From Escherichia phage A73, in sequence record OP778609: a DNA stretch of 64,000 nt, one strand, 5' to 3'. Both the position numbers and the translations under genes were made by a program. The stretch's first letter is position 1; every line of letters starts with the position of its first letter. This document shows, piece after piece, positions 1-63,124 of the stretch. Below the pieces are notes generated by a model. That model was not told where the DNA came from and ran no database searches. It was given only the letters and a program-made list of their open reading frames with translations.

Positions 1-350
1 ATTACGCTGATCTGGTTACTCTGAATGCAGATTCTAAAATCAACCTGTCAAACGTGGAAGCGGTGCACGTCCTGGCCCGCCGCTGGTTCCAAAAGTTATA
101 TGGTAATACTTATTTCTCTTTAAGTGTAGATGTGGAGATCGCTGGTAAATTGGTAGAAGTAGTTAACGTCCCGTTTAAATATGGTTATGGTGATCATTTC
201 GATACCGTGGCACTGGAAGAATTTAGCAAGGTTATCAACATGGAAGGAAAAGAGTTTTCAGAGTATAGTTACCTTTCCCGTTTTTGCCGTGACAATAACA
301 TCCCTGTTTATTCGAACGCTGTTGATGTTAAACGCAAAAAAGATATGTAA
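1..350 (+). CDS. hypothetical protein, 5'-truncated at window edge
   Basis: Reading frame open from position 3 to stop at 348-350; no upstream stop in window, so the true start lies outside. Confidence 0.45.
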   Translation, partial: YADLVTLNADSKINLSNVEAVHVLARRWFQKLYGNTYFSLSVDVEIAGKLVEVVNVPFKYGYGDHFDTVALEEFSKVINMEGKEFSEYSYLSRFCRDNNIPVYSNAVDVKRKKDM

Positions 351-437
351 TTATTATTGACAGTACATAGAAAACAAGTAAACTGTATTACATAGAAAGC
401 GGGAACACTTCCCGCTTATATTCCAGGAGTAAGAGAA

Positions 438-689
438 ATGATCGAACAAATCAAAACTACGACGGCTAATGTAACGGGTACAGTATCGCACTTCATTAGT
501 GATGAATCACGGGGCGTTCCTTATTGTGCAGTACATATAAACAAAAATGGCGACTACTGGTTAACGGCGTATGGATCTTATTCTTTCGGACGTAGTGCAC
601 ACCAAAAGATCCTAGATAAAGTACAGCCAACGGGTAAAAATATTACCGCTGAGATGTTTAATAAATCACTTGCAAAGTTAAAAGCGTAA
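438..689 (+). CDS. hypothetical protein (83 aa)
   Basis: ATG preceded by AGGAG RBS; upstream hairpin 398-418; downstream hairpin 703-725. Confidence 0.55.
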   Translation: MIEQIKTTTANVTGTVSHFISDESRGVPYCAVHINKNGDYWLTAYGSYSFGRSAHQKILDKVQPTGKNITAEMFNKSLAKLKA

Positions 690-750
690 AGTATAATACA
701 TCACATCAGGCGGGGAGTGTTTCCCCGCCACAAAACGAAAGGCCAACAAA

Positions 751-921
751 ATGAAAGCAAGCATGATGGTAGCGACTGTAAACATTATCATTGGTAACGG
801 AACTGGACACCACGAAATCATAAAAAACAAGGCTTACTCTATTAGCTCCCTCAAAAACGACATGCGTTTATCTTTGGGCCAAATCCGCGCTTACTTTCGT
901 GAAGGCTATCAGAAAAAGTAG
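751..921 (+). CDS. hypothetical small protein (56 aa)
   Basis: ATG at 751 after AAAGG; below the 60-aa track cutoff; fills the gap between flanking genes. Confidence 0.3.
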   Translation: MKASMMVATVNIIIGNGTGHHEIIKNKAYSISSLKNDMRLSLGQIRAYFREGYQKK

Positions 922-932
922 CAAATTAATAG

Positions 933-961
933 TTGACGCAAAGGTCATTTTAATTTAATCT
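933..961 (+). promoter_or_regulatory. sigma70-like promoter (TTGACG-17-TAATCT)
   Basis: -35 at 933-938 and -10 at 956-961 upstream of the ORF at 990. Confidence 0.45.
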
Positions 962-989
962 ATAACAAATCGACAAATGAGGCATAATC

Positions 990-1292
990 ATGTTTACCAA
1001 AGCAAATGAGTATTTCTTTTTAGATTTACTTGATGAAAGTATCTTTGTAGCTATGGGCAAAAAGTCAATGGTCTTTAAACGCAAAAAAGATAATGGTGAA
1101 TTTGAAGATAGCGAAGCCGTGCTAACAGTCAAGGAAGGTAAAGAACCTGCAACGTCTGTTTTAATCTACACCTTGACCAACGGCGGTGAAGTTATCGCAT
1201 CAGGTAGTAGCCATCCGATCCCAAAATCGGAAGTGAACACTGTAATTATTGGTTTTGTTGCAGCTTGTTTCTACGAGGAAAAAAGCAAATGA
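990..1292 (+). CDS. hypothetical protein (100 aa)
   Basis: ATG with upstream GAGG; stop overlaps the next start (ATGA). Confidence 0.55.
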   Translation: MFTKANEYFFLDLLDESIFVAMGKKSMVFKRKKDNGEFEDSEAVLTVKEGKEPATSVLIYTLTNGGEVIASGSSHPIPKSEVNTVIIGFVAACFYEEKSK

Positions 1293-1453
1293 ATCCGCAA
1301 AATTTATCTTATGTAAACTGGCCCAATAAGGCTGAGAAGAAAGAAAACTTGAAACGTCTGGTTAACTTTTATCGTGAAGCTGGTCATAGTAAAGTAACAG
1401 CGGTTAAAATGGCAAAGCGCCACCTTAACAAGCCAAGTACTAAACTAATTTAA
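1289..1453 (+). CDS. hypothetical basic protein (54 aa)
   Basis: ATG at 1289 overlapping the upstream stop, GAGGAA RBS; lysine-rich. Confidence 0.4.
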   Translation: MNPQNLSYVNWPNKAEKKENLKRLVNFYREAGHSKVTAVKMAKRHLNKPSTKLI

Positions 1454-1461
1454 AAAACTTG

Positions 1462-1490
1462 TTGACGTTGGCTTGTGCCGTACCTATAAT
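1462..1490 (+). promoter_or_regulatory. sigma70-like promoter (TTGACG-17-TATAAT)
   Basis: Consensus -35 at 1462-1467 and perfect -10 at 1485-1490 with 17-bp spacer. Confidence 0.6.
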
Positions 1491-1525
1491 GGACGGCATA
1501 GGCAAACGAAATAGGATTTATAGAA

Positions 1526-1732
1526 ATGAAAAAGAAAATTGTATATAATATTATTAGCTTTATCGCAACTATCCTCCTGGCTATTGCTGGTCTATCTTTG
1601 ATTGTTGCAGTAGGATCTCTGTTTCCTGGGGCAATAAGTATTAGCATAGCTTTCGCCGCATTGTCTGTTTTTACAGGGTATGCAGGGATTAAAGTTACTT
1701 ACTGGTCAGAAGATTACAAATATTCAAACTAA
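1526..1732 (+). CDS. small membrane protein (68 aa, two predicted TM helices)
   Basis: Hydrophobic stretches IISFIATILLAIAGLSLIVAV and ISISIAFAALSVFTGYAGI. Confidence 0.5.
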   Translation: MKKKIVYNIISFIATILLAIAGLSLIVAVGSLFPGAISISIAFAALSVFTGYAGIKVTYWSEDYKYSN

Positions 1733-1745
1733 ATTGAGGTGTAAG

Positions 1746-1895
1746 ATGTACAAGCTATTAACCTGGGAAACAGAATCATCGTCACCGATCAGCCGGACCT
1801 TTTTTGATTTGTGCACGGCTTACAGGCTGGCAAAGGGAGGATATCATAAGGCCCAAATCATTGATGAATTTAATGTTATCCTTTATGAATTTTAA
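1746..1895 (+). CDS. hypothetical small protein (49 aa)
   Basis: ATG at 1746 after GAGGTG; the longer track ORF uses an alternative start. Confidence 0.3.
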   Translation: MYKLLTWETESSSPISRTFFDLCTAYRLAKGGYHKAQIIDEFNVILYEF

Positions 1896-1942
1896 TCAAT
1901 TCATACACTTAAAAGAAAGTTAGAAAAAGTTTTAAAAAGTGG

Positions 1943-1971
1943 TTGCAACAGGTATTGGATAGTAGTATAGT
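1943..1971 (+). promoter_or_regulatory. sigma70-like promoter (TTGCAA-17-TATAGT)
   Basis: -35 at 1943-1948, -10 at 1966-1971. Confidence 0.4.
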
Positions 1972-2122
1972 ACTTTCAACGGGGCGAGATGGCCCAAAAC
2001 GAAAAAACTTGAAAGGTGATTATCATGATGGCAATTTTCTTAGTTTCTCTTCTGGTTGCTGTATGTTCTGCCACTGCTGCCGCTGTACTTTATGACACTC
2101 GCTACAATGAGGAATAATAAAA

Positions 2123-2341
2123 ATGAATATTGTCAACATTACAGGTAAGACCGAGATCCTTAAGAATCTTGCACCAGGTGAGTCCACCGTATGGATCTGC
2201 AAAGATGGAGAAGTAGAAAAACAAATGAGATTGTTTACCGCTATTTGTTGTCGGTTAAACATGAAAGTTACACAAATCCGGTCGATGATTGTTAGTGTGG
2301 GAAACATTCCGACTGAATGCATAATTCTTACAAAGATTTAA
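2123..2341 (+). CDS. hypothetical protein (72 aa)
   Basis: ATG preceded by GAGGAA RBS. Confidence 0.5.
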   Translation: MNIVNITGKTEILKNLAPGESTVWICKDGEVEKQMRLFTAICCRLNMKVTQIRSMIVSVGNIPTECIILTKI

Positions 2342-2417
2342 AAATAGCTTTACAACAACGATAAAATCAGTACAATACAAATCAGGCAATAAAGCCGACT
2401 AAAGAAAGGTAAAGACC

Positions 2418-2657
2418 ATGCAAACTATTATCACTAAATTTCTTCCTCCTACTAATACCCGTGGCGCTCGCATCAAAGCAAAATGTTGGTTGACAGATAT
2501 CACTATCGCCTATCCGGTAGCCGAGATCAACGAAGCCCATAAACTGGCGGCAGAAGTGTTAATTACAAAATTGAAGATGACAACAGATATTGATTGGAAT
2601 ATCGTTGCAAGCGGTGAAACACCGGACGGCAGCGGCTACGCTTTCATTATCAAATAA
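2418..2657 (+). CDS. hypothetical protein (79 aa)
   Basis: ATG after AAAGG; followed by hairpin 2666-2685. Confidence 0.55.
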   Translation: MQTIITKFLPPTNTRGARIKAKCWLTDITIAYPVAEINEAHKLAAEVLITKLKMTTDIDWNIVASGETPDGSGYAFIIK

Positions 2658-2711
2658 TCATAAAGCGGCGGGAATAGTTCCCGCCTTATTAAAGAGAAAA
2701 GAGAAGATATC

Positions 2712-2990
2712 ATGACTATTACTAAATTATCCACCGAAGAGATCACCAACATTCTGACTACTAATCTTGAAGATTGGAAGCGTGAAGCTGATTTGCAAGC
2801 AACCTGTAAGCTGAATACAGAGCTAACATCAGACGATATTGAAACGATCGTCCATGCTGATTTCTATGATGCTTTGCATGATGATTCTATCATCCTTGAA
2901 ACGATGCTAGATAATGCCTGGATTAATCCCGATTTGGCGGCGTATGGTCGTAGCACCTTTATCACTATCCACAATATTTATAACCGTTAA
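2712..2990 (+). CDS. hypothetical protein (92 aa), paralog of 3662-3940
   Basis: N-terminus MTITKLSTEEI...TTNLE.WKREAD and C-terminus FITIH.IYN shared with the ORF at 3662. Confidence 0.6.
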   Translation: MTITKLSTEEITNILTTNLEDWKREADLQATCKLNTELTSDDIETIVHADFYDALHDDSIILETMLDNAWINPDLAAYGRSTFITIHNIYNR

Positions 2991-3117
2991 GAGGCGATAA
3001 ATGGTCCTGTAACAGCCTAAAACGGCGAAAGTATGCAATCACCTTACTTGACGATATTCTACGCACTGGCTTACACTGGGGCTTTTAAAAGGGCACAAAA
3101 TAATTCGAAAAAAGTAG

Positions 3118-3146
3118 TTGACGGCAATTAATAATCTGGTAAAGTG
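3118..3146 (+). promoter_or_regulatory. sigma70-like promoter (TTGACG, weak -10) with conserved leader
   Basis: -35 at 3118-3123; downstream ACGTAAGGCGGCAATAGCGCCGCC leader hairpin at 3156-3173. Confidence 0.4.
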
Positions 3147-3192
3147 TACCACGTAAGGCGGCAATAGCGCCGCCATTAAAGAGATAAACGAA

Positions 3193-3579
3193 ATGAAACA
3201 AGAAATCATCAATGAAATTATTAGCGGTTACAAAGAAGCCTTTATTTTCGCTGAATCAGCAACAGATCAGCACGGGGAGTATATCGATAACCTTGATCCT
3301 TATGACTTCTCCCAGGATGCAAACGACCGGATCGCCCAGGATGTGACAGCCTTTATCAATGCTAATGTTGCCGCTATCTCTGAAGCGATGAGCGACGGCG
3401 CTACAGCCAACCAGATCGGGAATGATTTACATTTTACCCGTAACGGTCACGGTGTAGGCTTTTGGGATCGCCCTGAAATATACACCACTAACACGGCTAA
3501 CCGTTTGAGCAATGCCGCTAAATTAATGCCTAACGTGTCAGCTTACATTGGGAAAGATAATCTGATTTATATTGAATAA
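3193..3579 (+). CDS. hypothetical protein (128 aa)
   Basis: ATG after AAAGAG; acidic protein. Confidence 0.55.
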   Translation: MKQEIINEIISGYKEAFIFAESATDQHGEYIDNLDPYDFSQDANDRIAQDVTAFINANVAAISEAMSDGATANQIGNDLHFTRNGHGVGFWDRPEIYTTNTANRLSNAAKLMPNVSAYIGKDNLIYIE

Positions 3580-3661
3580 AAAGTATTGACAAGCTGAATC
3601 AACCTGATAAGATGTATCACATAGGGGCGACAAGCGCCCCGCCTAACAGAGAGATAGAATC

Positions 3662-3940
3662 ATGACCATCGCCAAATTATCCACCGAAGAAATCGAACAA
3701 GTGTTAACTACTAACCTGGAACAATGGAAACGTGAGGCAGATATACAATCAGCAAAATGGCTTAACGAGAAGTTAACACCGGATGATCTGAGTAAGATTA
3801 TAGATCCTCAATTCTATGAAGATATTCACGACACGGCGTTATCCGTTGAGGATGTACTCGATAAGCATTACATTGCTACTGATTTGCAGGTTTACGGGCG
3901 TAAAAACTTTATTACTATTCACGACATTTACAATAACTAA
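3662..3940 (+). CDS. hypothetical protein (92 aa), paralog of 2712-2990
   Basis: About half of residues identical to the ORF at 2712 along the full length. Confidence 0.6.
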   Translation: MTIAKLSTEEIEQVLTTNLEQWKREADIQSAKWLNEKLTPDDLSKIIDPQFYEDIHDTALSVEDVLDKHYIATDLQVYGRKNFITIHDIYNN

Positions 3941-3975
3941 GGGCGGCAACGCCCTACAACTAAAAGGGTAATATT

Positions 3976-4170
3976 ATGACGTTAGCAACATGCACCGGAT
4001 CAAAAATTGCTTGCTTTGAGTTTATGGAAGACTATGAAACGACAGCTATCACCGATCAATATATCACCGTGATCACGCGTGACGGTATCGCCTGGCATGT
4101 TCCGGTTTATGATGGGGATACCTATGAAGTCACCGACAGCGGCGGCAATACAGCTATCTTTGTTGTCTAA
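3976..4170 (+). CDS. hypothetical protein (64 aa)
   Basis: ATG after AAAGGG. Confidence 0.45.
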   Translation: MTLATCTGSKIACFEFMEDYETTAITDQYITVITRDGIAWHVPVYDGDTYEVTDSGGNTAIFVV

Positions 4171-4183
4171 GGGGGGAAACACT

Positions 4184-4411
4184 ATGCACAATAACATCAT
4201 TACCGATCGTGCCGCTACTATGCGCCCTGGCGATCGGGCACGTTTACAGATCGGCGCTTATCCGTTCCCTACCTATGACTTTTGCAAAGTAACCGCTATC
4301 GAAAACAATCCCTTTGATCCTGATACCGTGATCATCTGGTACGAAGGAAAGGGAAATAAATTTGAAGACATTTTGGGGCGGGATGAGCATATCAATATTA
4401 TTCGTTACTAA
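4184..4411 (+). CDS. hypothetical protein (75 aa)
   Basis: ATG at 4184 preceded by GGGGGG; the longer track ORF 4079-4411 overlaps the previous gene. Confidence 0.5.
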   Translation: MHNNIITDRAATMRPGDRARLQIGAYPFPTYDFCKVTAIENNPFDPDTVIIWYEGKGNKFEDILGRDEHINIIRY

Positions 4412-4529
4412 TCGCCACCTAACAGCCTAAATAGTAGGAGGCAATGCAATCCCCTACTCAATGAGAATGGAGCGCCCTGGCTTATGCTGGGGCGTTCTAC
4501 GTTACAGCAAAATAATTTTAAAAATACAC

Positions 4530-4558
4530 TTGACGTTCGCCAGGTGAGCGGGTATATT
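4530..4558 (+). promoter_or_regulatory. sigma70-like promoter (TTGACG-17-TATATT) with conserved leader hairpin
   Basis: -35 at 4530-4535, -10 at 4553-4558; leader ACGTAGGGCGGCAATAGTGCCGC at 4565-4587. Confidence 0.55.
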
Positions 4559-4607
4559 TTATCACGTAGGGCGGCAATAGTGCCGCTCACTGACTGGAGC
4601 TATCATT

Positions 4608-5009
4608 ATGGCCTTTACAATCACCTCTTACACTGACGTTGCCAACATTGCTAAAACTTTCGGCCCTGAAGCCCTTAAGTATGCGGTATCCAATGGTAAA
4701 CTAACGAAAGAGCAATGTTACCTGATTGGAAGCTGTAAACGTTGGGCGGCATCTCGTAACATCGAGATTGAAAACGTAAATGATGGTAACATCGAGTATA
4801 GCGTTGATGCAGTATTCAAGGCCGTGTATTTGGGCGGTATCTACAATACCAATCTTAATGATGTTCGTATCGTTCGCACTGGTTTTGGGGCTTATGATGT
4901 TCCAGTCCGCGAAGCTATGGAAAAAGGTTATATTAATCCAGCTATTTTAAGTATGATCATGACTGAGGCCAAAGAACGTAACGAAGTACGGGCCATCCTG
5001 GGCCTGTAA
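4608..5009 (+). CDS. hypothetical protein (133 aa)
   Basis: ATG after TGGAG RBS. Confidence 0.55.
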   Translation: MAFTITSYTDVANIAKTFGPEALKYAVSNGKLTKEQCYLIGSCKRWAASRNIEIENVNDGNIEYSVDAVFKAVYLGGIYNTNLNDVRIVRTGFGAYDVPVREAMEKGYINPAILSMIMTEAKERNEVRAILGL

Positions 5010-5040
5010 TGAAATATTAATCGAAAACTATTGACACGGA

Positions 5041-5068
5041 TCGTCAATATGCTAATATTTATCACGTA
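5041..5068 (+). promoter_or_regulatory. sigma70-like promoter (TTGACA-16-TAATAT) with conserved leader hairpin
   Basis: -35 at 5041-5046; leader ACGTAGGGCGGCAATATCGCCGC at 5075-5096. Confidence 0.5.
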
Positions 5069-5113
5069 GGGCGGCAATATCGCCGCTCACCCCTTAAAAG
5101 AGCGAGATCTAAA

Positions 5114-5329
5114 ATGGCGTTAACAAAACAAGAAATCATCGACCGCATCAAAGAGTCAACTGGCGAGAATATTGGTAATGGTTTAATTGTTAAAGTTCTT
5201 GATTATTCAAATAATCCCCTGGCACCGGAACCAGTGGCTTACAAATTATCCTGGATATCCGTATTTAGTGGTAAGCGTACAAGATGCGTATACTATCCGA
5301 ACACCGTGGGGCGTCAGTACTGTAAATAA
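5114..5329 (+). CDS. hypothetical protein (71 aa)
   Basis: ATG after AAAGAG; followed by hairpin GGGGCGGCAACGCCCC at 5351-5366. Confidence 0.5.
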   Translation: MALTKQEIIDRIKESTGENIGNGLIVKVLDYSNNPLAPEPVAYKLSWISVFSGKRTRCVYYPNTVGRQYCK

Positions 5330-5389
5330 AGGGCACTTTAATATTAATAAGGGGCGGCAACGCCCCAGGTCAACCAAAGGGAAACAACA

Positions 5390-5596
5390 ATGAGTATTGC
5401 AATGATTAGCTCATCCGACATTAAAAAGGCTTTATCTGTATTGCGCTATCACCATAGAAGGAAGGTAATCAATGACGAGAGCTATCTAGATTCATCGTTA
5501 GAAAGCGATACGTTGGAAGCCATTTCAAAATTATCTGATTTGCATAAACGCATGACCGAAAGCAACCGATCCGACTTCATAGGGGGCGAAATATGA
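5390..5596 (+). CDS. hypothetical protein (68 aa), MSIAM N-terminus
   Basis: ATG after AAGGGA; shares the N-terminal pentapeptide with the next ORF. Confidence 0.5.
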   Translation: MSIAMISSSDIKKALSVLRYHHRRKVINDESYLDSSLESDTLEAISKLSDLHKRMTESNRSDFIGGEI

Positions 5597-5853
5597 GTAT
5601 TGCAATGTTAATCAATACCGTAGAAGAGGCGAAAGCATTAAAGTTACGTGTTGAACTGATTGATCAACCAGGTGGAGATCTCCTTGTACAAATCTATCCC
5701 CCAAAGGATGATTCTGGCGCTTATGATTGGTGCTACTCTGACACGTTCGAACAAGTAGACATTAAAGCAATAACATCATTTATCAACAGGGCTATACTTG
5801 AGCAAACGATAGAACTTAACGGGATGTTAAAAACACCCTGGCACATTTACTGA
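5593..5853 (+). CDS. hypothetical protein (86 aa), MSIAM N-terminus
   Basis: ATG overlapping the upstream stop; AGGGGG RBS. Confidence 0.5.
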   Translation: MSIAMLINTVEEAKALKLRVELIDQPGGDLLVQIYPPKDDSGAYDWCYSDTFEQVDIKAITSFINRAILEQTIELNGMLKTPWHIY

Positions 5854-5863
5854 GTTCGACAAA

Positions 5864-5891
5864 AGGGCTTGACTTGTTCAGCCCTTTTTTG
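5864..5891 (+). terminator. rho-independent terminator
   Basis: Stem AGGGCT/AGCCCT followed by TTTTTT. Confidence 0.6.
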
Positions 5892-6029
5892 CTATTCTTA
5901 TCAAACGGGCGGCACCTGGGAACAGGGGGAGGTAATCACTGGACGACTCCGCTATACAGTGATAGTAAATAGCTATCAATAATCTCCAAAAATAAAATAA
6001 AACCTATCGAGTCTTTACAATTCTTTCTG

Positions 6030-6058
6030 TTGACACAACAACCGCATTACAGTATTAT
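6030..6058 (+). promoter_or_regulatory. sigma70-like promoter (TTGACA-17-TATTAT)
   Basis: -35 at 6030-6035, -10 at 6053-6058, then CTCGTAGGGC leader motif. Confidence 0.55.
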
Positions 6059-6061
6059 TTA

Positions 6062-6330
6062 TCTCGTAGGGCAGCGAAGCAGTGATGTAAAGTAGTTACT
6101 CTATGATGTAAGTTCTGAGAAGTCGAATCCGATAAAGTATCAGAAAGTTTCTAAGTTTTCGAATCGTCCAGATGAAAAAGGCTGGCAAGTGTTGAGAAAG
6201 GGCACGTTGAGTAAGTCCTGAACAGGGGCGCTCCTAGACACCTTCTACTGAGATTGCGATCGAAGTGTTAAACTGTGAGAAACAAAAGAGCGCTAGGAAA
6301 GAAAGAAACAAGAAAAGAAGTTAAAAAGAT
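6062..6330 (+). ncRNA. candidate untranslated transcript / sRNA
   Basis: About 270 nt downstream of a strong promoter with no ORF longer than 7 codons; the next promoter (6333) serves the gene at 6407. Confidence 0.2.
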
Positions 6331-6332
6331 TG

Positions 6333-6362
6333 TTGACACAAAAGTAAGTTGTATACTATTAT
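6333..6362 (+). promoter_or_regulatory. sigma70-like promoter (TTGACA-18-TATTAT)
   Basis: -35 at 6333-6338; CTCGTAGGGC leader follows. Confidence 0.45.
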
Positions 6363-6406
6363 ATCTCTCGTAGGGCAAACATTCAAAACATCAAAAAGGG
6401 TACAAA

Positions 6407-6682
6407 ATGTTACAACTTAACGCTAAATTAGACAAAGAAATCACTGAATTTTGGGATATGGTAGTAGCTACTGATGTGGACGGTGTAGCAAGTCCTTACC
6501 TCAATAACATCGAGTATCACAATGTTGCCGCTATCAATGCAGAACACAAAGAGAAAGGCGGTGCTGATAAATTTGCTAAAAGCAATGGCTTCACTGATGC
6601 TAATCACATGATGCAATCAGTATTGTGGCAAGCTCAAGAAGATTTCGAAGAAAAAACTCTTGAATTTGCCAGACGCTCATAA
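6407..6682 (+). CDS. hypothetical protein (91 aa)
   Basis: ATG after AAAGGG; followed by hairpin GGGCCGAAAGGCCC at 6697-6710. Confidence 0.55.
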   Translation: MLQLNAKLDKEITEFWDMVVATDVDGVASPYLNNIEYHNVAAINAEHKEKGGADKFAKSNGFTDANHMMQSVLWQAQEDFEEKTLEFARRS

Positions 6683-6737
6683 TAGAATAATCAAACGGGC
6701 CGAAAGGCCCACTAACTGACCTAACAGGATTAACATC

Positions 6738-7007
6738 ATGAATCGCATCGACCAGCTTAAAGTAGTTCAGCATATGGCTTACCGTATCCTTGAAGTTCAG
6801 AAAGGGAGCAAAAAAGAAGTATGTGAGAAGGCTTATAAGGTATTCAGCCACAAAGCTGATGATTGGAAGTTGCAGAAAGTCAAAAAGGCCGATATCCTGG
6901 GCTACCTTGAGGATGAGATCCGCCTTGCGGAGCAAAAACAGATTCGTCGTGATGAGGCAGAACATAACCAGGCCTGGCAGGAGTGGTTTAAAGGGTATAC
7001 TAAGTAA
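6738..7007 (+). CDS. hypothetical protein (89 aa)
   Basis: ATG after ACAGGA; Lys/Glu-rich helical protein. Confidence 0.55.
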   Translation: MNRIDQLKVVQHMAYRILEVQKGSKKEVCEKAYKVFSHKADDWKLQKVKKADILGYLEDEIRLAEQKQIRRDEAEHNQAWQEWFKGYTK

Positions 7008-7016
7008 TATCGAAAA

Positions 7017-7040
7017 CGGGGGGTTATATGCCCCCTTTGT
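7017..7040 (+). terminator. rho-independent terminator
   Basis: GGGGGG/CCCCC hairpin followed by a T-run. Confidence 0.55.
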
Positions 7041-7070
7041 AAATATTCCATTAATTTACAATTCCCTCTA

Positions 7071-7100
7071 TTGACAAGAAAGTCAATTTTGCAGTATAGT
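7071..7100 (+). promoter_or_regulatory. sigma70-like promoter (TTGACA-18-TATAGT)
   Basis: -35 at 7071-7076, -10 at 7095-7100. Confidence 0.5.
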
Positions 7101-7140
7101 TATATCTCTAGCAGCAAACAACAAAACAAAGGACAACGAC

Positions 7141-7560
7141 ATGAACATCAAATCAACTAATCCGGCTTACTCTTTCGATAACGCTTTTTGTCACGGTAGT
7201 GCCGCCAAAGGTTTTGAAATTGATGGTAAACTGGTTATCGTCAATGTTGATGGGGAAGAGGTTGCAGTTTATCCAGTGGCAGACGTTAAAAGCCGTTTAC
7301 AATGCCGCATGGATGTTAACGAATACCGCCTTGATCCGGTTCGTGTCGTTGCCCTGGTACTGGAAGAAGAAATTAAAGCAATGCAGCACAGCAACAAATT
7401 TATCGGCGATGCACAGGACAACATGAAAGTAAGCCGCCACAAAGTTAATGAAGCACTGAAAGATTTTGGCTTTAAAGATCTAGTTATCAAACGTGATGAA
7501 AAATTTCGCTTTCGTAATGATCTGGCAAATCGCTACTATGAAATCTATGAAGCACTTTAA
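7141..7560 (+). CDS. hypothetical protein (139 aa)
   Basis: ATG after AAAGGA; longest ORF in this block. Confidence 0.6.
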   Translation: MNIKSTNPAYSFDNAFCHGSAAKGFEIDGKLVIVNVDGEEVAVYPVADVKSRLQCRMDVNEYRLDPVRVVALVLEEEIKAMQHSNKFIGDAQDNMKVSRHKVNEALKDFGFKDLVIKRDEKFRFRNDLANRYYEIYEAL

Positions 7561-7575
7561 GAGGTAAGACAACAA

Positions 7576-7598
7576 GGGGCCGCAATAGCGGCCTTTTC
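7576..7598 (+). terminator. rho-independent terminator (GGCCGC-AATA-GCGGCC + TTTT)
   Basis: Hairpin with the GCAATAG loop shared by the leader hairpins, followed by a T-run. Confidence 0.6.
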
Positions 7599-7600
7599 TA

Positions 7601-7629
7601 TTGACACCTGCTAATCATTCCTTTAATAT
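7601..7629 (+). promoter_or_regulatory. sigma70-like promoter (TTGACA-17-TAATAT)
   Basis: -35 at 7601-7606, -10 at 7624-7629; CCTTGTAGGGC leader. Confidence 0.55.
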
Positions 7630-7680
7630 GTACCTTGTAGGGCAAGCAATAACGCAAGCCCATAAATAGGACAAACTATC

Positions 7681-7878
7681 ATGACCATCGCTAATGAACT
7701 GATCGCTGTATTGAATGAAGCCAAATCTAATCAGATCGATGTACAGATCAAAGAATTGCCCAATGGCCTGATCGGTTGCACTTGCACCTGCTTCGGAAGT
7801 GACTACACAGAGGTAAGCTCTCTAGAATCTCTCATTCGTCACTTGAAATCAATAGTTGAAGATTGGAGAATCATCTAA
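7681..7878 (+). CDS. hypothetical protein (65 aa)
   Basis: ATG after TAGGA; followed by hairpin GGGCCGCAATAGTGGCCC at 7887-7904. Confidence 0.5.
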   Translation: MTIANELIAVLNEAKSNQIDVQIKELPNGLIGCTCTCFGSDYTEVSSLESLIRHLKSIVEDWRII

Positions 7879-8494
7879 TCAACCAGGGGCCGCAATAGTG
7901 GCCCTTGTCATATCCATCGGCGTGACTCTCCCAACTCTATTAATCCCTTCCCCATTTGGATCATCATAACTTACCTCATCTAATCATTAATCTAATCCCC
8001 TTTGGAATCTCTCCCCCACAAATCTAAACTAATCTGATAGCTTACCATAACATAATCCACAAAGAAAGAACTATTTTGCCCACAATGAAAGGCAGTTTTA
8101 AAGAGATACCATTGCCAGAGTATGGAGGTGGCGCGACCGTAGGGAGCGACACTATAAAACGAGTATACCCCTCCTACCGCTATGCGGTCATCGGTGATAA
8201 CCGATATCGTTACACGCTATCTGTTCTCTTCGTTTCCTCGTTTTATAGTGTCTATATGTAGTAATCTTTTATTCTTTGTCAATACATTATCGAAGATAAT
8301 ATTGAATTATTTAATGCTTTGTTATTCATATAAAGTGAATAGCTAGTCAATAGGAAGGCCGTTAGTGTGACCACACAAAGAGGCTATGCACCACAAAGAG
8401 AGGCCGTACTTGCCCACAAAAGGAGCAAACAAGCAAGGCGGTACGCCAGTTTGCTAATGAGCGTAGCTCTTTTGCTAGACAAAACTCTCTTCTC

Positions 8495-8653
8495 TCTTCT
8501 TTCCCAAAATAAATTTTTTCTTGCTTTTATTGCCAGAGTATGGCGGGGGGAATGTTGAAAAAATAGATCTTGACTGGTCAACATACGATACATCCTATCT
8601 TCTTTCCCAAAATAAATTTTTTCTTGCTTTTATTGCCAGAGTATGGCGGGGGC
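8495..8653. repeat. two copies of a ~55-bp direct repeat
   Basis: TCTTCTTTCCCAAAATAAATTTTTTCTTGCTTTTATTGCCAGAGTATGGCGGGGG at 8495-8550 and again at 8598-8653; partial third copy of TTGCCAGAGTATGG near 8113. Confidence 0.85.
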
Positions 8654-26427: not shown

Positions 26428-26753
26428 TTTTTAACTCCGAAGATCTTAGATAGTAATTTATCATTCCCGATAGTTACACCACAAAAACTTTTTACTCCGT
26501 ATACTAGATACGACCCGATTGTAACACAGATAATGATCGGATAAACAAGATACCAAAAGAATGTTGCAAGTATCCACCCTGCCATCACCATACGTAAATT
26601 TACATTTTCGTTATTCAGTGGCTCCAGGATATAAATATCCTCACAATCTTTTGGGAAGGGGATGTTGAACCCCTTCTGCCGTAATTTGATCAGTAAGAAC
26701 CAAAGTGGGCAACTAATAAGACAACCTATTAAATAACCTTCAACCATTTTCAC
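26424..26753 (-). CDS. small integral membrane protein, paralog B (109 aa)
   Basis: Tandem duplicate of 26107-26427. Confidence 0.55.
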   Translation of the reverse strand: MKMVEGYLIGCLISCPLWFLLIKLRQKGFNIPFPKDCEDIYILEPLNNENVNLRMVMAGWILATFFWYLVYPIIICVTIGSYLVYGVKSFCGVTIGNDKLLSKIFGVKK

Positions 26754-27990
26754 TCTCCTTCAACTTGTCAAGATATTGTGTAACGTATCTTACTTTTACA
26801 TTTCGGATTCTGCTCTTGATCTCATCTGGACGTCCCGCGAATTTTTCAGAAATCTCTTTACTTTCTTTTGAGATTGCAACACTGTTCTGAATAATCCCCG
26901 CCAGTGCTGAGAATAATACCAGTGGTTGACTGTAGTTGTCAAACATTTTTTCAGGTCCACGCCCACGAGCATCACAGATGCAAGCGTCAATAAATTCAGA
27001 GAGGAATGCTTGGTCCTTTTCACCACGTAAGGCTACTAACAAGTCATAAACTTTCTTTGGCTTCATTTCTTTGATACGGTGAAGTCGTGTATGATGCTCA
27101 GTTACAGCTAAAGCCAACTTCTTCCAATTATTGGGGACACCAAAGCGATCACAAACTTGTTCAGTTAACTTGATACCATGTTCTTCGTGACCGTGCAGTT
27201 TACCCGTTAGCCAATAAATACATTTACCTAAGTCGTGACAAAGGACTGCCCACTTCACAGCCTCACTTGCACGAGTCGCCTGGGCATAATCCATGCAAAG
27301 TAAAGTGTGAACAAATGCATCACCTTCAGGATGGTGCTCCTTGGGTTGAACAACATCGTATAAATCCACAAGCTCAGGAAATTCTCCCAGTTGAGTCAAC
27401 ATACGGATCATTACCGAAGGTTTATTCATTTCTGACTGATCACTGAAGCATTTCTTAATCTCTGCAAATTTACGCTCTTTTGGCAATGCACTTAAATCCA
27501 CACTCCGACACATTAGCCAAGTGTCAGGATCAATTGTAAACTCACCGCCGTATCTGGCATGTAATCTGGCTAGTCGGTACACACGTAAAGGGTCTTCGAT
27601 AAATGCTTTAGTGGATACACAACGTAACCGACGAAGTTCAATATCCATTGCACCATTACAAGGGTCGATAATTTCGCCCGTGGAAATATCCTTGGCGATC
27701 GCATTAATGGTTAAATCTCTTCGCATCAGGTCTTGTTCAATTGTAACGTCTGGAGAGAACACAACTTCGAAATCGTGATAACCAGGGCCTGTTGATCTTT
27801 CCGTTCGAGCAAGAGCATACTCTTCTTTAGTGTTCGGTTCAAGGTACACAGGGAAAGCTGCACCAACCTTAGTAAATCCCTTCTCAATCATTTCTTCATG
27901 GGTCGCTCCAACTACAACGTAGTCACGATCCTTGCTTTCAACACTCATTAGTTCATCGCGAACTGCACCACCTACCAAGTAAACTTTCAT
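26740..27990 (-). CDS. cca: CCA-adding tRNA nucleotidyltransferase with HD domain (416 aa)
   Basis: MKVYLVGGAVRD...DRD.VVVG...ERS.GPGY...RRDLTINA plus C-terminal HD-type histidine cluster; matches my recollection of E. coli Cca; GAGAAGAAGGA RBS. Confidence 0.9.
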   Translation of the reverse strand: MKVYLVGGAVRDELMSVESKDRDYVVVGATHEEMIEKGFTKVGAAFPVYLEPNTKEEYALARTERSTGPGYHDFEVVFSPDVTIEQDLMRRDLTINAIAKDISTGEIIDPCNGAMDIELRRLRCVSTKAFIEDPLRVYRLARLHARYGGEFTIDPDTWLMCRSVDLSALPKERKFAEIKKCFSDQSEMNKPSVMIRMLTQLGEFPELVDLYDVVQPKEHHPEGDAFVHTLLCMDYAQATRASEAVKWAVLCHDLGKCIYWLTGKLHGHEEHGIKLTEQVCDRFGVPNNWKKLALAVTEHHTRLHRIKEMKPKKVYDLLVALRGEKDQAFLSEFIDACICDARGRGPEKMFDNYSQPLVLFSALAGIIQNSVAISKESKEISEKFAGRPDEIKSRIRNVKVRYVTQYLDKLKESENG

Positions 27991-28028
27991 TCCTTCTTCT
28001 CCCATTCTTTCCAATTCTGCATGTCCGC

Positions 28029-28223
28029 TCATAGCCATCCCCTTTCTTTATACCCTTTTGTAAATCCTGATTCCCAATCTTGAAATTGCTCCGGCATGGT
28101 GTTTGGATTATACGGGTTGTTTCTCTTGAACATCCCAAACTTGAATCCAGCGGCTCGGCCCTTCTCGTATGCTGAACTGCTTTTTCTTGTCATACTCTTT
28201 CTCCTCTTAAATTTAAAGACCAA
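28029..28223 (-). CDS. hypothetical basic protein (64 aa)
   Basis: ORF. Confidence 0.4.
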   Translation of the reverse strand: MVFKFKRRKSMTRKSSSAYEKGRAAGFKFGMFKRNNPYNPNTMPEQFQDWESGFTKGYKERGWL

Positions 28224-28604: not shown

Positions 28605-29114
28605 TTAAGGGTGAATCCAGTAAAAAGGTTTTGTTAAACCAAGTTTACCTTTCGGGTCCCAAATGAAGTAGGCATACGCCGCACCATCTGTTTTCCCATC
28701 CTCAGTAAAAGAGGGTCGCTTGGATAGAGTAACCAAGTGATCAACAGGATATTCCTTCCAGAACTCCACACGTTTGGTACTCTCAAGGAAACCTAAACGA
28801 AGCAGCATTATCACCACATCAGCATCCTTGTGAGCCTTCTCTACAAACTCTTGAGCTAAATTATAAGGTGGGTTAGTTAACACACAATCTACCTTATTGT
28901 ATTTAGTTGCAAGATAATCAACACCTTCTTGAATCTCTCCCCAAGCTGAACCAATTGGCATTTCATTATAAAAACGTCCAGAGGCTCTGCAAGGTTCCAG
29001 ATAAGTCCAATCCTGACGGATTGGAACTAAATTCAAGAAAGCATCTACTGCCCATTTCGGAGTTTCATAGCGATCATTTTCACGGCGCTCTGCTTTAGGT
29101 TTCAATGCTGCCAC
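28605..29114 (-). CDS. phage Dam-like N6-adenine DNA methyltransferase (169 aa)
   Basis: DRYETP motif near the N-terminus and catalytic NPPY tetrapeptide (LTNPPYNL). Confidence 0.65.
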   Translation of the reverse strand: MAALKPKAERRENDRYETPKWAVDAFLNLVPIRQDWTYLEPCRASGRFYNEMPIGSAWGEIQEGVDYLATKYNKVDCVLTNPPYNLAQEFVEKAHKDADVVIMLLRLGFLESTKRVEFWKEYPVDHLVTLSKRPSFTEDGKTDGAAYAYFIWDPKGKLGLTKPFYWIHP

Positions 29115-58766: not shown

Positions 58767-59048
58767 TCAGATCATCTCCAAAGTTATTAGTACATTATCC
58801 AAATCTTCAGCCACAAGCTGTAAGTCAGGTTTCATACTATCTTCCACACGATGATAAATCAAGCCTTTTTCCACATAAGGATTCATTACTCCGTAATAGT
58901 TCCCCAAAATGGTGTACCAGTCACATTCGTAAACAGTCACAACACATACTTTCAGTCCAGCTTTTGCTGAATGCCAAGCTTCTCTCATAGCTTGAAGGTG
59001 ACTTAGTTCATTTTCTGATAACTTTTTACATTTATTATTCAAAATCAT
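58767..59048 (-). CDS. hypothetical protein (93 aa)
   Basis: First gene of the minus-strand block, downstream of the promoter at 59085-59116. Confidence 0.5.
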   Translation of the reverse strand: MILNNKCKKLSENELSHLQAMREAWHSAKAGLKVCVVTVYECDWYTILGNYYGVMNPYVEKGLIYHRVEDSMKPDLQLVAEDLDNVLITLEMI

Positions 59049-59084
59049 TATAAAAATAACCTGTTGTTTGTTAAAGTAAGAGCA

Positions 59085-59116
59085 CTATACCTATGTAAAA
59101 ACTCCATGTCAAGACT
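59085..59116 (-). promoter_or_regulatory. sigma70-like promoter (TTGACA-17-TATAGT on minus strand)
   Basis: Complement of 59111-59116 is the -35, complement of 59085-59090 is the -10. Confidence 0.5.
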
Positions 59117-59360
59117 TTAAATTTAAAAAATTTAGTATAAAATCTATAAAAGATCCTTTAAGATCTATAGATCATACATAAAAAGATCTTATAAAAGATC
59201 TTGTTTTTATTGTTTTTAATAATAATTATGAATGTAATGAATAATTATTATATAATTTATGAATGTAATGAATAAATTATAAAGATAAAGGGTTTGGCGA
59301 GAGGCTTCGAGCCAGGGAAATCTAATATAGTATTGTATGCCTAAACGGGCATAAAGGGTT
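59117..59360. repeat. AT-rich divergent intergenic region with GATC cluster and 22-bp direct repeats
   Basis: Five GATC sites within ~50 bp (59150-59205); TTATGAATGTAATGAATAA repeated at 59227-59249 and 59257-59279. Confidence 0.7.
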
Positions 59361-59389
59361 TGACATGTTGGGATAGTCATGTAAGATAG
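59361..59389 (+). promoter_or_regulatory. sigma70-like promoter (TTGACA-16-TAAGAT)
   Basis: Upstream of the plus-strand gene at 59416, which has a GAGGAGGG RBS. Confidence 0.5.
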
Positions 59390-59415
59390 CGAATGTAAGG
59401 TTAAGAGGAGGGACT

Positions 59416-59802
59416 ATGTTTGAGATAAACACCTCTGTTGGGAAGAAAACTTTTGAAGACGATGCATTCGCCATGCTTCCTCTTCGTTGGGTTACTGAAA
59501 TGTCCGGCGAGGATTTAAAGAGGATGATACTTTTGAGGTGGAGATTTTCATTCTTTGCGGAGTTTGCTTCTCGACAGGGCGAATCAGTGGAAACGTGTTT
59601 CTATGAATCACAGGTGGCATTGTGTGAGTTGTTTCAAATGTCACCGACCAGTCAAGCTAAGGTAAGTGCATTCCTTAAGAAGATGGAGACTGGTGGTTAC
59701 ATCAGGATTTACAGAGATAAGGTGATAATCAACGGGAAGTCGAAACCACGTCATTACATTGTGGTTAACGACCCAATACTTAAAGAGAAGTACGGATATT
59801 GA
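59416..59802 (+). CDS. hypothetical protein (128 aa)
   Basis: ATG with GAGGAGGG RBS. Confidence 0.6.
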   Translation: MFEINTSVGKKTFEDDAFAMLPLRWVTEMSGEDLKRMILLRWRFSFFAEFASRQGESVETCFYESQVALCELFQMSPTSQAKVSAFLKKMETGGYIRIYRDKVIINGKSKPRHYIVVNDPILKEKYGY

Positions 59803-61413: not shown

Positions 61414-61488
61414 GGCCCTGTAGCTGGACGGTTCAAGCAAGCGACTCATAATCGCCAGACGGTGGTTCGATTCCACCCAGGGCCACCA
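61414..61488 (+). tRNA. tRNA-Met/Ile2 (anticodon CAT)
   Basis: Acceptor GGCCCTG/CAGGGCC, T-arm GGTGG-TTCGATT-CCACC, anticodon loop CTCATAA, encoded CCA; 75 nt. Confidence 0.8.
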
Positions 61489-61677
61489 TACAAAGTCGGG
61501 TAGCTCCCGATAAGTCGTCGGACTGATGTTCCCTGACTATGAGTTCTCTCAACGATAACGACGTAGATCACAGCAGAAACGGCGCACCCTATTATATTTC
61601 TTAATACATTTCAATAAGTTCTTGACATAATCCTATTATACTGCTAATATAGATATATCGACTGAATTGAGGTGTTT

Positions 61678-62052
61678 ATGGCTAAAGCTGAAATCGTTAC
61701 TCGAAAACGCGGTCGGCCTACTACAGAGGAAAGCATTGCAATCAATACTGAGAGAGCAATTCTTCATGCTCGTTCCGAGTTTGCAAGACTTACTCCTCAA
61801 GCAATTAAAACTCTGGAAGGTCTACTGACTTCCGGTACAGAGAAAGTTAAAGAAACTACTGCGAAGTATATTCTTGAGCAAGCTGAAAAGGCAAACAATC
61901 TGTACACAATGGAAGATAATGAAGAGGATCTGGCAGGAGGAACTACTTCTGCAAATTCAGAAACTCATCAAGGCCCTTCTGATGCATTTAAAGATGCTAT
62001 CCCATTAACTACTCAGATTCGTGAGTATAAAATGGCAGAAGGTGAAGATTAA
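61678..62052 (+). CDS. hypothetical protein with AT-hook-like RKRGRPT motif (124 aa)
   Basis: Own promoter TTGACA-17-TAATAT at 61622-61650; GAGGTG RBS; terminator 62051-62073. Confidence 0.55.
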   Translation: MAKAEIVTRKRGRPTTEESIAINTERAILHARSEFARLTPQAIKTLEGLLTSGTEKVKETTAKYILEQAEKANNLYTMEDNEEDLAGGTTSANSETHQGPSDAFKDAIPLTTQIREYKMAEGED

Positions 62053-62073
62053 GGCTCGCAAGGGCCTTTATTA
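62051..62073 (+). terminator. rho-independent terminator
   Basis: AAGGC-TCGCAAGG-GCCTT followed by a T-rich run. Confidence 0.55.
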
Positions 62074-62297
62074 AGAAGTTTTCTTTAAGGTAGTTCTTAC
62101 TTTAGCAGAGTAAATCTTCGGCAAGTGGCGGTAACCACTTTACCGATACCTCATAGTCAGTGCTGCAAACACTGGCTACCTTAAAGAGAATTTAACTCGT
62201 CGAATAAGGAAGATGCTGATCTCAAAGTGAGGTCACTTACCGCAAGGGGTGTGCATAGACTCCCGCTTCCGAATAGACTATGTGGCGAGATGTATTT

Positions 62298-62379
62298 GGG
62301 GACGTGGCAGAGCGGTCGAATGCGCCTGACTGTAAATCAGGTATCCCACACGGTGGTTCGAATCCATCCGGCCCCACCA
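62298..62379 (+). tRNA. tRNA-Tyr (anticodon GTA)
   Basis: Anticodon arm CCTGA-CTGTAAA-TCAGG, 3-bp D-stem, T-arm GGTGG-TTCGAAT-CCATC, encoded CCA; one A-G mismatch in the acceptor stem. Confidence 0.75.
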
Positions 62380-62382
62380 AAT

Positions 62383-62457
62383 TTTCCGTTAGGCTTACAG
62401 GATAAGATTCCCACAACATATCGTTGTGATACTGGTTCGAATCCAGTACGGAAACCA
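62383..62457 (+). tRNA. atypical tRNA-like element (no encoded CCA)
   Basis: Perfect 7-bp acceptor TTTCCGT/ACGGAAA and T-arm ACTGG-TTCGAAT-CCAGT; anticodon-like hairpin CACAA-CATATCG-TTGTG has non-canonical loop positions; D-arm irregular. Confidence 0.35.
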
Positions 62458-62582
62458 AATTAAGCCGTGATGTGATGTAATCACTGACCTCTTTGAAGGA
62501 TCATGGCATTTTATACAAAAACCTGAATAATTTAGGTTTTAATTCCTGGGGTTCGTAGCCCTATTACTAAGAGGACTTAACT

Positions 62583-62792
62583 ATGTTTACTATTAAAATT
62601 ATTGATATCGATGGAAATGAGACTGGTGTTTCAACAAGGCACTATAGATGGTACTCAAAAATGAATATTTTTGATCTGGAGGGTGGTGAATCTGTTTCTG
62701 TACCACCAAAAAGTCGTGCTTATGTAATGAATGACAAAGGAATAACCATCGGTAGATACACAAATACAGCGGATCAACGCGTTCTTAATTAA
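62583..62792 (+). CDS. hypothetical protein (69 aa)
   Basis: ATG with AAGAGGA RBS; sits between tRNA genes. Confidence 0.5.
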   Translation: MFTIKIIDIDGNETGVSTRHYRWYSKMNIFDLEGGESVSVPPKSRAYVMNDKGITIGRYTNTADQRVLN

Positions 62793-62793
62793 A

Positions 62794-62868
<75 letters not shown>

Positions 62869-62967
62869 AACCTCTATCCATCTGACGCGTTTATGGGGTT
62901 GACCTGATCACTCTTCTCCTAATCTCGTGTGAAGACACCATGATTGTTGGGATGGATAAACTTCTTT

Positions 62968-63042
62968 TGGGGATTAGCCAAGCGGTAAGGCATCGGATTT
63001 TGATTCCGACATTCACTGGTTCGATTCCAGTATCCCCAGCCA
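62968..63042 (+). tRNA. tRNA-Gln (anticodon TTG)
   Basis: Acceptor TGGGGAT/ATCCCCA, anticodon arm TCGGA-TTTTGAT-TCCGA, T-arm ACTGG-TTCGATT-CCAGT, encoded CCA; 75 nt. Confidence 0.85.
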
Positions 63043-63047
63043 ATTAA

Positions 63048-63124
<77 letters not shown>

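Follow-up and report, generated by a model that had tools for sequence, protein, structure and literature searches.

What is the function of a dense cluster of GATC sites located between two divergent promoters in the genome of a virulent phage? This question is raised by a 64,000-nucleotide stretch of Escherichia phage A73 (sequence record OP778609; the whole stretch is referred to as the window), in which a 367-bp spacer (59049-59415, 27% GC) separates two divergent transcription blocks and holds five GATC sites next to A/T-rich repeats. An earlier note made from the sequence (the original prediction) proposed that this region may be a methylation-regulated switch or a replication origin, and linked it to a Dam-like methyltransferase encoded by the phage. 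The data discussed below show that the GATC cluster is genuine, that it departs from chance in its context and that it has been maintained in evolution. The interpretation that we favor, albeit tentatively, is that of an origin-type unwinding and assembly module, which doubles as a divergent early control region and in which the GATC units are targets of the host proteins Dam and SeqA. Of the earlier proposal, the cluster between divergent early promoters is retained; this cluster is maintained across genera and belongs to a module with origin-like features. The connection to the phage methyltransferase is not supported. The elements of this region, in window coordinates, are as follows:

58767-59048, minus strand: first gene of the leftward block (93 aa, phrog_12865, function unassigned)
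59084-59112, minus strand: leftward early promoter, TTGACA-N17-TATAGT (consensus scan, 11/12 matches)
59113-59144: pure A/T stretch, UP-element-like, upstream of the leftward -35 hexamer
59116-59143, plus strand: weak rightward promoter-like site, TTTAAA-N16-TAAAAT (9/12 matches)
59145-59205: GATC array, five units of approximately WTAWA-GATC-Y
59201-59218, plus strand: T-rich tract, two copies of TTGTTTTTA
59214-59275, plus strand: two 31-nt direct repeats, iteron-like (84% identity, 31-bp period)
59285 and 59351: two copies of ATAAAGGGTTTG
59320-59357: 38-nt element with the palindrome TATGCC-N6-GGCATA (59336-59353), abutting the rightward -35 hexamer
59360-59387, plus strand: rightward promoter, TTGACA-N16-TAAGAT (consensus scan)
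59391-59398, plus strand: third copy of GAATGTAA, in the leader after the rightward promoter
59416-59802, plus strand: winged-helix gene (128 aa, phrog_8453), whose product is a candidate binder of the repeats and the palindrome
28605-29114, minus strand: open reading frame of an NPPY N6-adenine methyltransferase, carrying TNPPY

The GATC sites start at 59152, 59162, 59170, 59185 and 59197, i.e., at spacings of 10, 8, 15 and 12 bp, and span 49 bp (59152-59200). Three of the five are found within AGATCT (at 59161, 59184 and 59196), and the coordinates thus bear out the earlier description of five sites in ~50 bp, three of them as AGATCT. The same applies to the flanking divergent promoters, where near-consensus sigma-70 sites are found on both sides and the flanking open reading frames diverge. 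The two copies of a 22-bp A/T-rich repeat that had been described are also present, but this length is approximate; the exact repeat core is 19 nt (TTATGAATGTAATGAATAA at 59226-59244 and 59257-59275) and the repeat extends to 31 nt at the lower identity given above. Nearly all G and C within the array belong to a GATC, in surroundings that are ~90% A/T. With the transcription start taken as ~7 nt beyond each -10 hexamer, the array covers positions of about -75 to -123 relative to the start inferred for the leftward promoter and of about -195 to -240 relative to that of the rightward one.

The last 10.3 kb of the window is identical, except for one mismatch, to Escherichia phage W70 (OP778610.1, Vequintavirinae, 137,323 bp). 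The spacer resides within this part, where the window position equals the W70 position minus 73,323. Neither the window nor the complete W70 genome (137 kb) has a denser 50-bp GATC cluster than the array, and the runner-up contains three sites. Upon uniform random placement of the same number of sites, a cluster of at least five in 50 bp was found in 11% (window) or 18% (genome) of the trials. Local dinucleotide shuffles of the 367-bp spacer yielded 0.67 expected GATC sites as compared to the five observed, and none of 3000 shuffles reached five. Furthermore, the extended motif is clustered; for three AGATCT in 41 bp P = 0.008, and for the AAGATC/GATCTT cluster P is ~1e-4, where two of the five sites are scored twice. 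The case against chance is thus based on the local enrichment, the clustering of the extended motif and the recurrence in relatives that is described below. An apparent genome-wide excess of GATC (407 observed, 256 expected) was discarded as it disappears under a trinucleotide (second-order) model (observed/expected ratio 1.03). In the W70 genome as a whole GATC is not depleted, while most other 4-bp palindromes are (CTAG 0.59, CCGG 0.65, CATG 0.70, CGCG 0.72). When folded as single-stranded DNA, the array forms hairpins that are better than those of shuffles (z = -3.65), which is expected because of the tandem AAGATCTT palindromes and carries no independent weight.

The array abuts the least stable, most A/T-rich DNA of the entire W70 genome, with a minimum at window position 59189-59290. 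Here, the GC content falls to 8.3% in a 60-bp window, and the nearest-neighbor energy over 100 bp is -97.7 kcal/mol, as compared to a genome value of -131 +/- 6.2 kcal/mol and to -106.4 kcal/mol for the next locus elsewhere. The direct repeats are part of the 60-100 bp with the highest A/T content in the genome (8-11% GC). In Seunavirus PVP-SE1 (45.6% GC), the homologous spacer is top-ranked with 60- and 150-bp windows and comes second with 100-bp windows. A third extreme A/T-rich spot of PVP-SE1 (L031 31526-31797, i.e., 131526-131797) adjoins gp213, a 92-aa protein annotated as a "replication initiation protein".

The gene of the 128-aa protein and the divergent spacer upstream of it are syntenic in 73 phage records. 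The spacers that were compared originate from the W70 group, four Certrevirus phages, SSBI34, the Mydovirus phages KB57, Ro1 and KNP2, Seunavirus PVP-SE1, Henunavirus Hena1, two Serratia phages, TH18 and three metagenomic relatives. In most of these the order of elements is maintained, i.e., GATC unit(s), a TTGTTTT-type tract, two A/T-rich direct repeats, palindromes, a promoter and the winged-helix gene. The tract TTGTTTT(N)TTGTTTT is shared by Certrevirus, Mydovirus, Seunavirus, SSBI34 and Hena1, and palindromes of the form YCC-N6-GGR are found upstream of the TTGACA promoter, as in the window, in all relatives and in a distant locus (L027). The Serratia phages lack the T-rich tract and harbor a single repeat copy, while TH18 and Av-05 have a different spacer with a TATATA tract. 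An equivalent of the leftward promoter is present in CR8, KB57 and PVP-SE1. At the place that corresponds to the pure A/T stretch of the window, KB57 and PVP-SE1 harbor a strong rightward consensus sigma-70 promoter that reads through the array and the A/T tract, and in CR8 the scan detected no rightward promoter there.

The number of GATC units varies. There are five in the window and in A7_1, six in LTH01 and UPEC06 (owing to a 10-bp tandem duplication of a unit), five in L022 (at spacings of 11, 5, 13 and 14), four in L038, three in L037, three in each of the Certrevirus phages CR8, CR9 and KaOmega, two in phiTE, three in SSBI34 and PVP-SE1, and two to three in KB57 and KNP2. Relative to the local composition, GATC is significantly enriched in the window (P < 1/3000), SSBI34 (0.0013) and CR8, CR9 and KaOmega (0.002-0.004) and marginally so in phiTE (0.037) and PVP-SE1 (0.04); there is no significant enrichment in Ro1, KB57, Hena1, Kashira, ChuuTotoro or the remaining relatives. 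Arrays with other spacings and flanks are found at the equivalent position where the winged-helix proteins are 48-65% identical to that of the window. What stays the same from unit to unit and from phage to phage is (A)GATC alone; its flanks and the spacing (5 to 22 bp) turn over, which suggests that the tetranucleotide itself is the functional unit that is kept. Additional GATC sites are found in Certrevirus and SSBI34 within the spacer of the leftward promoter; in Certrevirus (L002-L005 and L037) two reside in the 17-bp promoter spacer (e.g., L003 1162-1173), and L038 has one.

Also the direct repeats change between close relatives. In A7_1, LTH01 and UPEC06 (L023, L024 and L025) both 19-nt copies have the same T-to-A difference from those of the window (window GAATGTAATGAAT vs GAATGAAATGAAT), and this parallel change indicates that the two copies evolve in a concerted manner. 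A difference is also seen in the third copy, that of the leader (GAATGTAA vs GAAGGTAA). Despite these changes in the repeats, the winged-helix protein is 100% identical in LTH01, UPEC06 and A5-4. In W70 and PVP-SE1, neither the 19-nt repeats nor the palindromes occur outside the spacer, except for one exact inverted copy of the 38-nt element in W70 (68929-68966, outside the window and ~64 kb away). This confinement indicates that they are local cis elements and that their binder acts locally rather than on a genome-wide regulon. The second 38-nt copy is found directly after the stop codon of W70_32, ahead of a terminator-like hairpin.

The candidate for such a binder is the 128-aa protein itself. 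It is composed of a single winged-helix domain, modeled by AlphaFold at a predicted local distance difference test (pLDDT) score of 86, and in a fold comparison the winged-helix domains of replication initiators head the list. Family libraries gave only generic winged-helix signals, with Pfam matches to Crp-like, TrmB, ArsR and MarR, and one record labels a homologue as a transcriptional regulator. The family is small, with 19 representative clusters in 1.8 billion proteins, and scans with its profile identified only five loci in viral contigs and two in metagenome contigs. No relative was found in 72,556 plasmids, and the protein displays no sequence similarity to plasmid Rep proteins. Four longer members, which are distant homologues (P0025, P0027, P0028 and P0029; 233-253 aa), have acidic tails that end in DTVPF, DWVPF, IDPPF and WRTNF and that we take to resemble the C-terminal tail of E. 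coli SSB. Upstream of P0027 (L027 816-1230) there are TGTTCC-N6-GGGAACA palindromes and an A/T tract flanked by two GATC sites. One Logan contig (L020, SRR17836600) diverges just upstream of the winged-helix gene; its positions 1-30 contain adjacent SacI-, PstI- and ClaI-type sites (GAGCTCTGCAGTCATCGAT), and this end may be vector, engineered sequence or a chimera.

How does this arrangement compare to known systems? We assume that the enterobacterial hosts of these phages carry Dam and SeqA. The array resembles the 13-mer end of E. coli oriC in that closely positioned GATC sites, several of them as AGATCT, run into a T-rich tract that is the thermodynamically weakest, and in that the sites are over-represented (5 vs 0.67) at a spacing compatible with SeqA. 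The T-rich tract together with the last GATC reads GATCTTGTTTTTA, which deviates from the oriC 13-mer consensus GATCTnTTnTTTT by two mismatches. At oriC, AGATCT is the 6-mer box of the unwinding element that is bound by ATP-DnaA, and GATC is the target of SeqA (PMC4285127). The preference of SeqA is for GATC sites ~10 or 20 bp apart (PMC2912659), with which the array spacings of 10, 8, 15 and 12 bp are compatible. Unlike oriC, the spacer is devoid of DnaA 9-mer boxes and of IHF and Fis sites, there are only two weak 13-mer matches, and the neighboring candidate binder is encoded by a winged-helix gene of the phage, in place of DnaA.

In the second system, oriR of P1, a core of five GATC-containing heptamers that requires Dam and binds SeqA is followed by iterons and then by repA. 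Brendler et al. 1995 is listed among the references of PMC4285127. The phage spacer is similar in that its A/T-rich DNA carries five short GATC-bearing repeats, after which come direct repeats and then a promoter and a winged-helix gene. It differs from P1 oriR, which has five 19-bp iterons, in having two direct repeats and no DnaA boxes, in that the protein is composed of 128 residues with one winged-helix domain and without sequence similarity to Rep, and in that it belongs to a virulent myovirus with a genome of 137 kb and with a polymerase and a helicase-primase of its own. A third comparison is to T4 oriF and oriG and to the primary origin of T7, where a promoter is followed by an A/T-rich unwinding element. 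A similar situation is seen in KB57 and PVP-SE1, where the consensus promoter fires into the array and the A/T tract, in contrast to the window, where the promoter is weak (9/12), and to CR8, where none was detected. To our knowledge, the origins of T4 and T7 include neither GATC arrays nor a dedicated gene for a DNA-binding protein.

The data show how the spacer is built, that it is unique in the genome and extremely unstable, that it is conserved while its elements turn over, and which fold the neighboring protein has; DNA unwinding, protein binding, an involvement of Dam and SeqA, and origin activity are inferred. In the model that we favor, this non-coding module of ~370 bp would be a replication origin of the phage with its own site-specific binding protein, ordered as leftward promoter, GATC/AGATCT units, T-rich tract, iteron-like repeats, palindromic operator, rightward promoter and winged-helix gene. 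The GATC units would act as those at the 13-mer end of oriC and in the core of P1 oriR. Host Dam would methylate the units flanking the unwinding element, passage of the first replication fork would leave them hemimethylated, and SeqA would then bind. In this way, both firing of the site and the activity of the leftward early promoter next to it would depend on whether the template has been replicated. In favor of an origin we count the stability minimum at the spacer, the array that abuts it and in which (A)GATC alone is constant, the repeats and palindromes that are local to the spacer, the role of AGATCT and GATC at oriC and the spacing preference of SeqA. We also count the copy number, which is maintained at 3-6 units in the W70 group, Certrevirus, SSBI34 and the metagenomic relatives despite turnover, and the consensus promoter that in Mydovirus and Seunavirus fires through the array and the A/T tract, a layout like that of the T4 and T7 origins.

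A number of observations weigh against this interpretation. The bare GATC count is only weakly unusual and not significant genome-wide. Ro1, Hena1 and the Serratia phages have an array of no more than 1-2 units, and in phages of the rV5 type the corresponding position was found to lack the module. Instead of the three 13-mers of oriC, there are matches with two mismatches each at 59197 (plus strand) and 59176 (minus strand) only, and the window contains 70 such matches. There is no cluster of DnaA 9-mer boxes (TTWTNCACA); a scan of the spacer gave a single match with one mismatch, at 59092 inside the leftward promoter, out of 169 such matches in the window. Consensus scans identified no IHF or Fis sites in the window, and as an iteron region the spacer would hold two repeat copies only (19-nt core, 31-bp period). 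The GC skew displays no replication-type switch; it is +30 to +65 per kb in plus-strand blocks and -61 and -70 in minus-strand ones. The global minimum of the cumulative GC skew does coincide with the spacer, but it was discounted as evidence for an origin because it is fully explained by gene orientation.

There is also another candidate for an origin, a repeat-rich stretch without convincing open reading frames at window position ~7,900-9,700, which matches in position a 2.2-kb non-coding region of PVP-SE1. It is possible that this stretch is a serious alternative or additional origin, or a locus for non-coding RNA. It is located where plus-strand genes meet minus-strand genes and contains a 58-nt repeat of 98% identity (at 8492 and 8595), three copies of ATTGCCAGAGTATGG and, at 8242, the second most A/T-rich 100 bp of the window. 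In phage Bas54, no transposon insertions were obtained in a non-coding region of ~2.5 kb (preprint 10.1101/2025.11.20.689424), of which the stretch is the likely positional counterpart. The array spacer itself was ruled out as an equivalent of that region in Bas54, which is of the rV5 type, since the latter is convergent, ~2.5 kb in length, has GTGTAAAC-type repeats and is non-homologous. A weak, non-syntenic relative of the first leftward gene is found in rV5 (gp018).

The main alternative, which we regard as doubtful, is that the spacer is purely a transcriptional control region without a role as an origin. According to this explanation, the winged-helix protein autoregulates its own promoter through the palindrome and the repeats, and the array, at about -75 to -123, is an upstream modulator of the leftward early promoter that acts either via occupancy by SeqA or Dam, such that the promoter is off once the template is replicated, or via bending by phased A-tracts. 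It is consistent with the two near-consensus divergent promoters that flank the elements, with the palindrome directly upstream of the rightward -35 hexamer and the third GAATGTAA copy in the leader, and with the extra GATC sites inside the leftward-promoter spacer of Certrevirus and SSBI34. The Pfam matches are to generic winged helices of the regulator type only, the one annotated homologue is called a transcriptional regulator, and the GC skew shows no sign of an origin. However, there is no other cluster of such density in the window or in W70, i.e., no other promoter has one, and the leftward promoter, with 11/12 consensus matches and an A/T upstream element, should not need activation. 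Furthermore, a purely transcriptional function leaves unexplained both that the genome-wide stability minimum is found at the spacer in two genera and that initiator-type domains head the fold list.

A further comparison is to Dam-controlled promoters such as pap, agn43 and mom of phage Mu, in the last of which three upstream GATC sites are located in an OxyR site. The spacer is similar to these in having several GATC sites upstream of a promoter in a Dam-positive host. In Certrevirus, except L037, an exact ATAG-N7-CTAT directly follows the array (e.g., L003 1238-1252); it presumably is an OxyR-type half site, which adds to the similarity to Mu mom. When compared to the four-element OxyR consensus (ATAG-N7-CTAT twice), phiTE has 3/16 mismatches, a value reached by 1/300 shuffles, while the best match in the window has 6/16 mismatches, which was reached by 266/300 shuffles. 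Unlike in the mom-type systems, the array of the window is positioned far upstream and is embedded in an unwinding-type tract. For an OxyR/Dam switch of the Mu mom type, the window lacks the OxyR consensus, and the hint is limited to phiTE.

Could the array be devoid of function? Replication slippage that multiplies a short GATC-bearing unit could produce such an array as a neutral by-product, an explanation that we consider improbable. It draws on the 11-18% of uniform-placement trials that contain a cluster of five in 50 bp, on the 10-bp tandem duplication between close relatives, and on a copy number that ranges from 1 to 6 across the subfamily, with enrichment that is not significant in Ro1, KB57, Hena1, Kashira and ChuuTotoro. 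Neutral slippage is difficult to reconcile with the persistence of differing arrays at one position across lineages whose winged-helix proteins are 48-65% identical, with the local enrichment that is significant in the window, SSBI34 and three Certrevirus genomes and marginal in phiTE, and with the near absence of G and C from the rest of the tract.

About as improbable is the possibility that the units are sites for a sequence-specific host or phage protein that recognizes a longer motif (approximately WTAWAGATCY), in which case GATC would be incidental and methylation irrelevant. In its favor are the A that precedes GATC in nearly all units, the common TAAA and TATAA flanks and the ATAG-N7-CTAT next to the array in Certrevirus, including the rarely matched OxyR score of phiTE (3/16 mismatches, 1/300 shuffles). 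Yet these flanks are as given by a background of 90% A/T, the 3' flank may be T, C, A or G, the spacing ranges from 5 to 22 bp, and no Fis, IHF, DnaA-box or OxyR consensus is found in the window.

Finally, an interpretation of the array as a packaging (pac) site or as a physical end of the genome, modeled on the GATC-rich pac of P1, is very improbable and was rejected: two independent Logan contigs, from two samples, do end at window position 59327 inside the spacer, and TH18-like phage records are split in the equivalent spacer, but the contig ends are explained by the 38-nt exact inverted repeat (59320-59357 and W70 68929-68966), which breaks assembly graphs at k = 31, the W70 terminase gene starts ~4.6 kb downstream of the rightward promoter, and the related Certrevirus genomes CB7 and phiTE are circularly permuted as determined from BAL-31 and read-depth tests (PMC7344957).

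If the GATC units of the favored origin-type module are methylated, which enzyme is responsible? The NPPY open reading frame of the original prediction is present on the minus strand with its TNPPY motif, but neither its designation as Dam-like nor its association with the array is supported. The models of the Dam family, which comprises alpha-class GATC methyltransferases, gave scores below threshold (PF05869, E = 0.046, 13.8 bits with a cutoff of 28.1; TIGR01712, E = 0.037, 13.6 bits with a cutoff of 97), and the protein matches phrog_799 ("DNA methyltransferase"). The structural model (pLDDT 90) is that of a bare catalytic domain without a target-recognition domain. Among the 60 structural matches listed, the closest are ErmC', METTL5, M.TaqI, MmeI and type I M subunits, and no chain is described as Dam. 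The enzyme is of the gamma class, close to Erm and TaqI and not Dam-like. Orthologues are found in Serratia phage Kashira and as gp152 of PVP-SE1 (noted in the record as similar to rv5_gp118), and these phages are without a notable array or without the entire module. Any methylation of GATC is thus most simply attributed to host Dam, and the phage enzyme is predicted not to be specific for GATC. In Certrevirus CB7, a ClaI digest of the DNA was read by the authors as Dam methylation, where host and phage enzymes were not separated (PMC7344957).

The methyltransferase gene is three genes away from that of a CCA-adding tRNA nucleotidyltransferase (26740-28038), a proximity that makes an RNA substrate possible, and the nearest structures, ErmC' and METTL5, are ribosomal RNA N6-methyladenosine (m6A) enzymes. 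The substrate could thus be RNA rather than DNA. The assignment corrects an easy mis-annotation, i.e., this small NPPY enzyme should not be called Dam.

As to the genomic surroundings, it is from this spacer that the two largest transcription blocks of these phages run in opposite directions. The leftward block starts at 59048, extends over ~50 kb and includes genes for ligase, nucleotide metabolism and the methyltransferase. The rightward block is composed of small genes and five tRNA genes (Met, Tyr, Gly, Gln and Pro; plus strand, 61414-63124), followed in W70 by the terminase and structural genes. In similarity searches, neither E. coli genomes nor plasmids gave a match, and an Rfam scan gave only sub-threshold chance matches. 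The first part of the window corresponds to a diverged, indel-rich relative of W70, with position 1 at approximately W70 79,691. At the left end (1-8,000), 310 bp can be aligned to W70 from 79,691 at 86% identity and the remainder is non-colinear; the window is ~6.4 kb longer than the matching W70 stretch. The combination of a diverged left end and a nearly identical last 10.3 kb indicates that the source is a mosaic relative of W70.

A literature search identified no described replication origin for these phages, only promoter surveys and a note on a transposon-free region, and no description of this spacer module. The most far-reaching form of the favored interpretation, which as a whole we consider unlikely, is that the winged-helix proteins are a novel, very small family of single-domain initiators at a new type of phage origin in the non-rV5 Vequintavirinae, and that firing of this origin and of the flanking early promoter is gated by host Dam and SeqA through an expandable GATC array. 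If so, a virulent phage would use the hemimethylation clock of its host to time the first rounds of replication and the switch from early to middle expression. The group comprises coliphages as well as phages of Salmonella, Klebsiella, Cronobacter and Pectobacterium, several of which are under study for biocontrol or therapy. Phage engineering, as well as studies of how replication starts in a virulent phage, would gain a handle from a defined cis module and its dedicated binding protein. If the array reads the Dam/SeqA state of the host, control by hemimethylation would no longer be limited to chromosomes, plasmids and temperate phages but would include a virulent myovirus.

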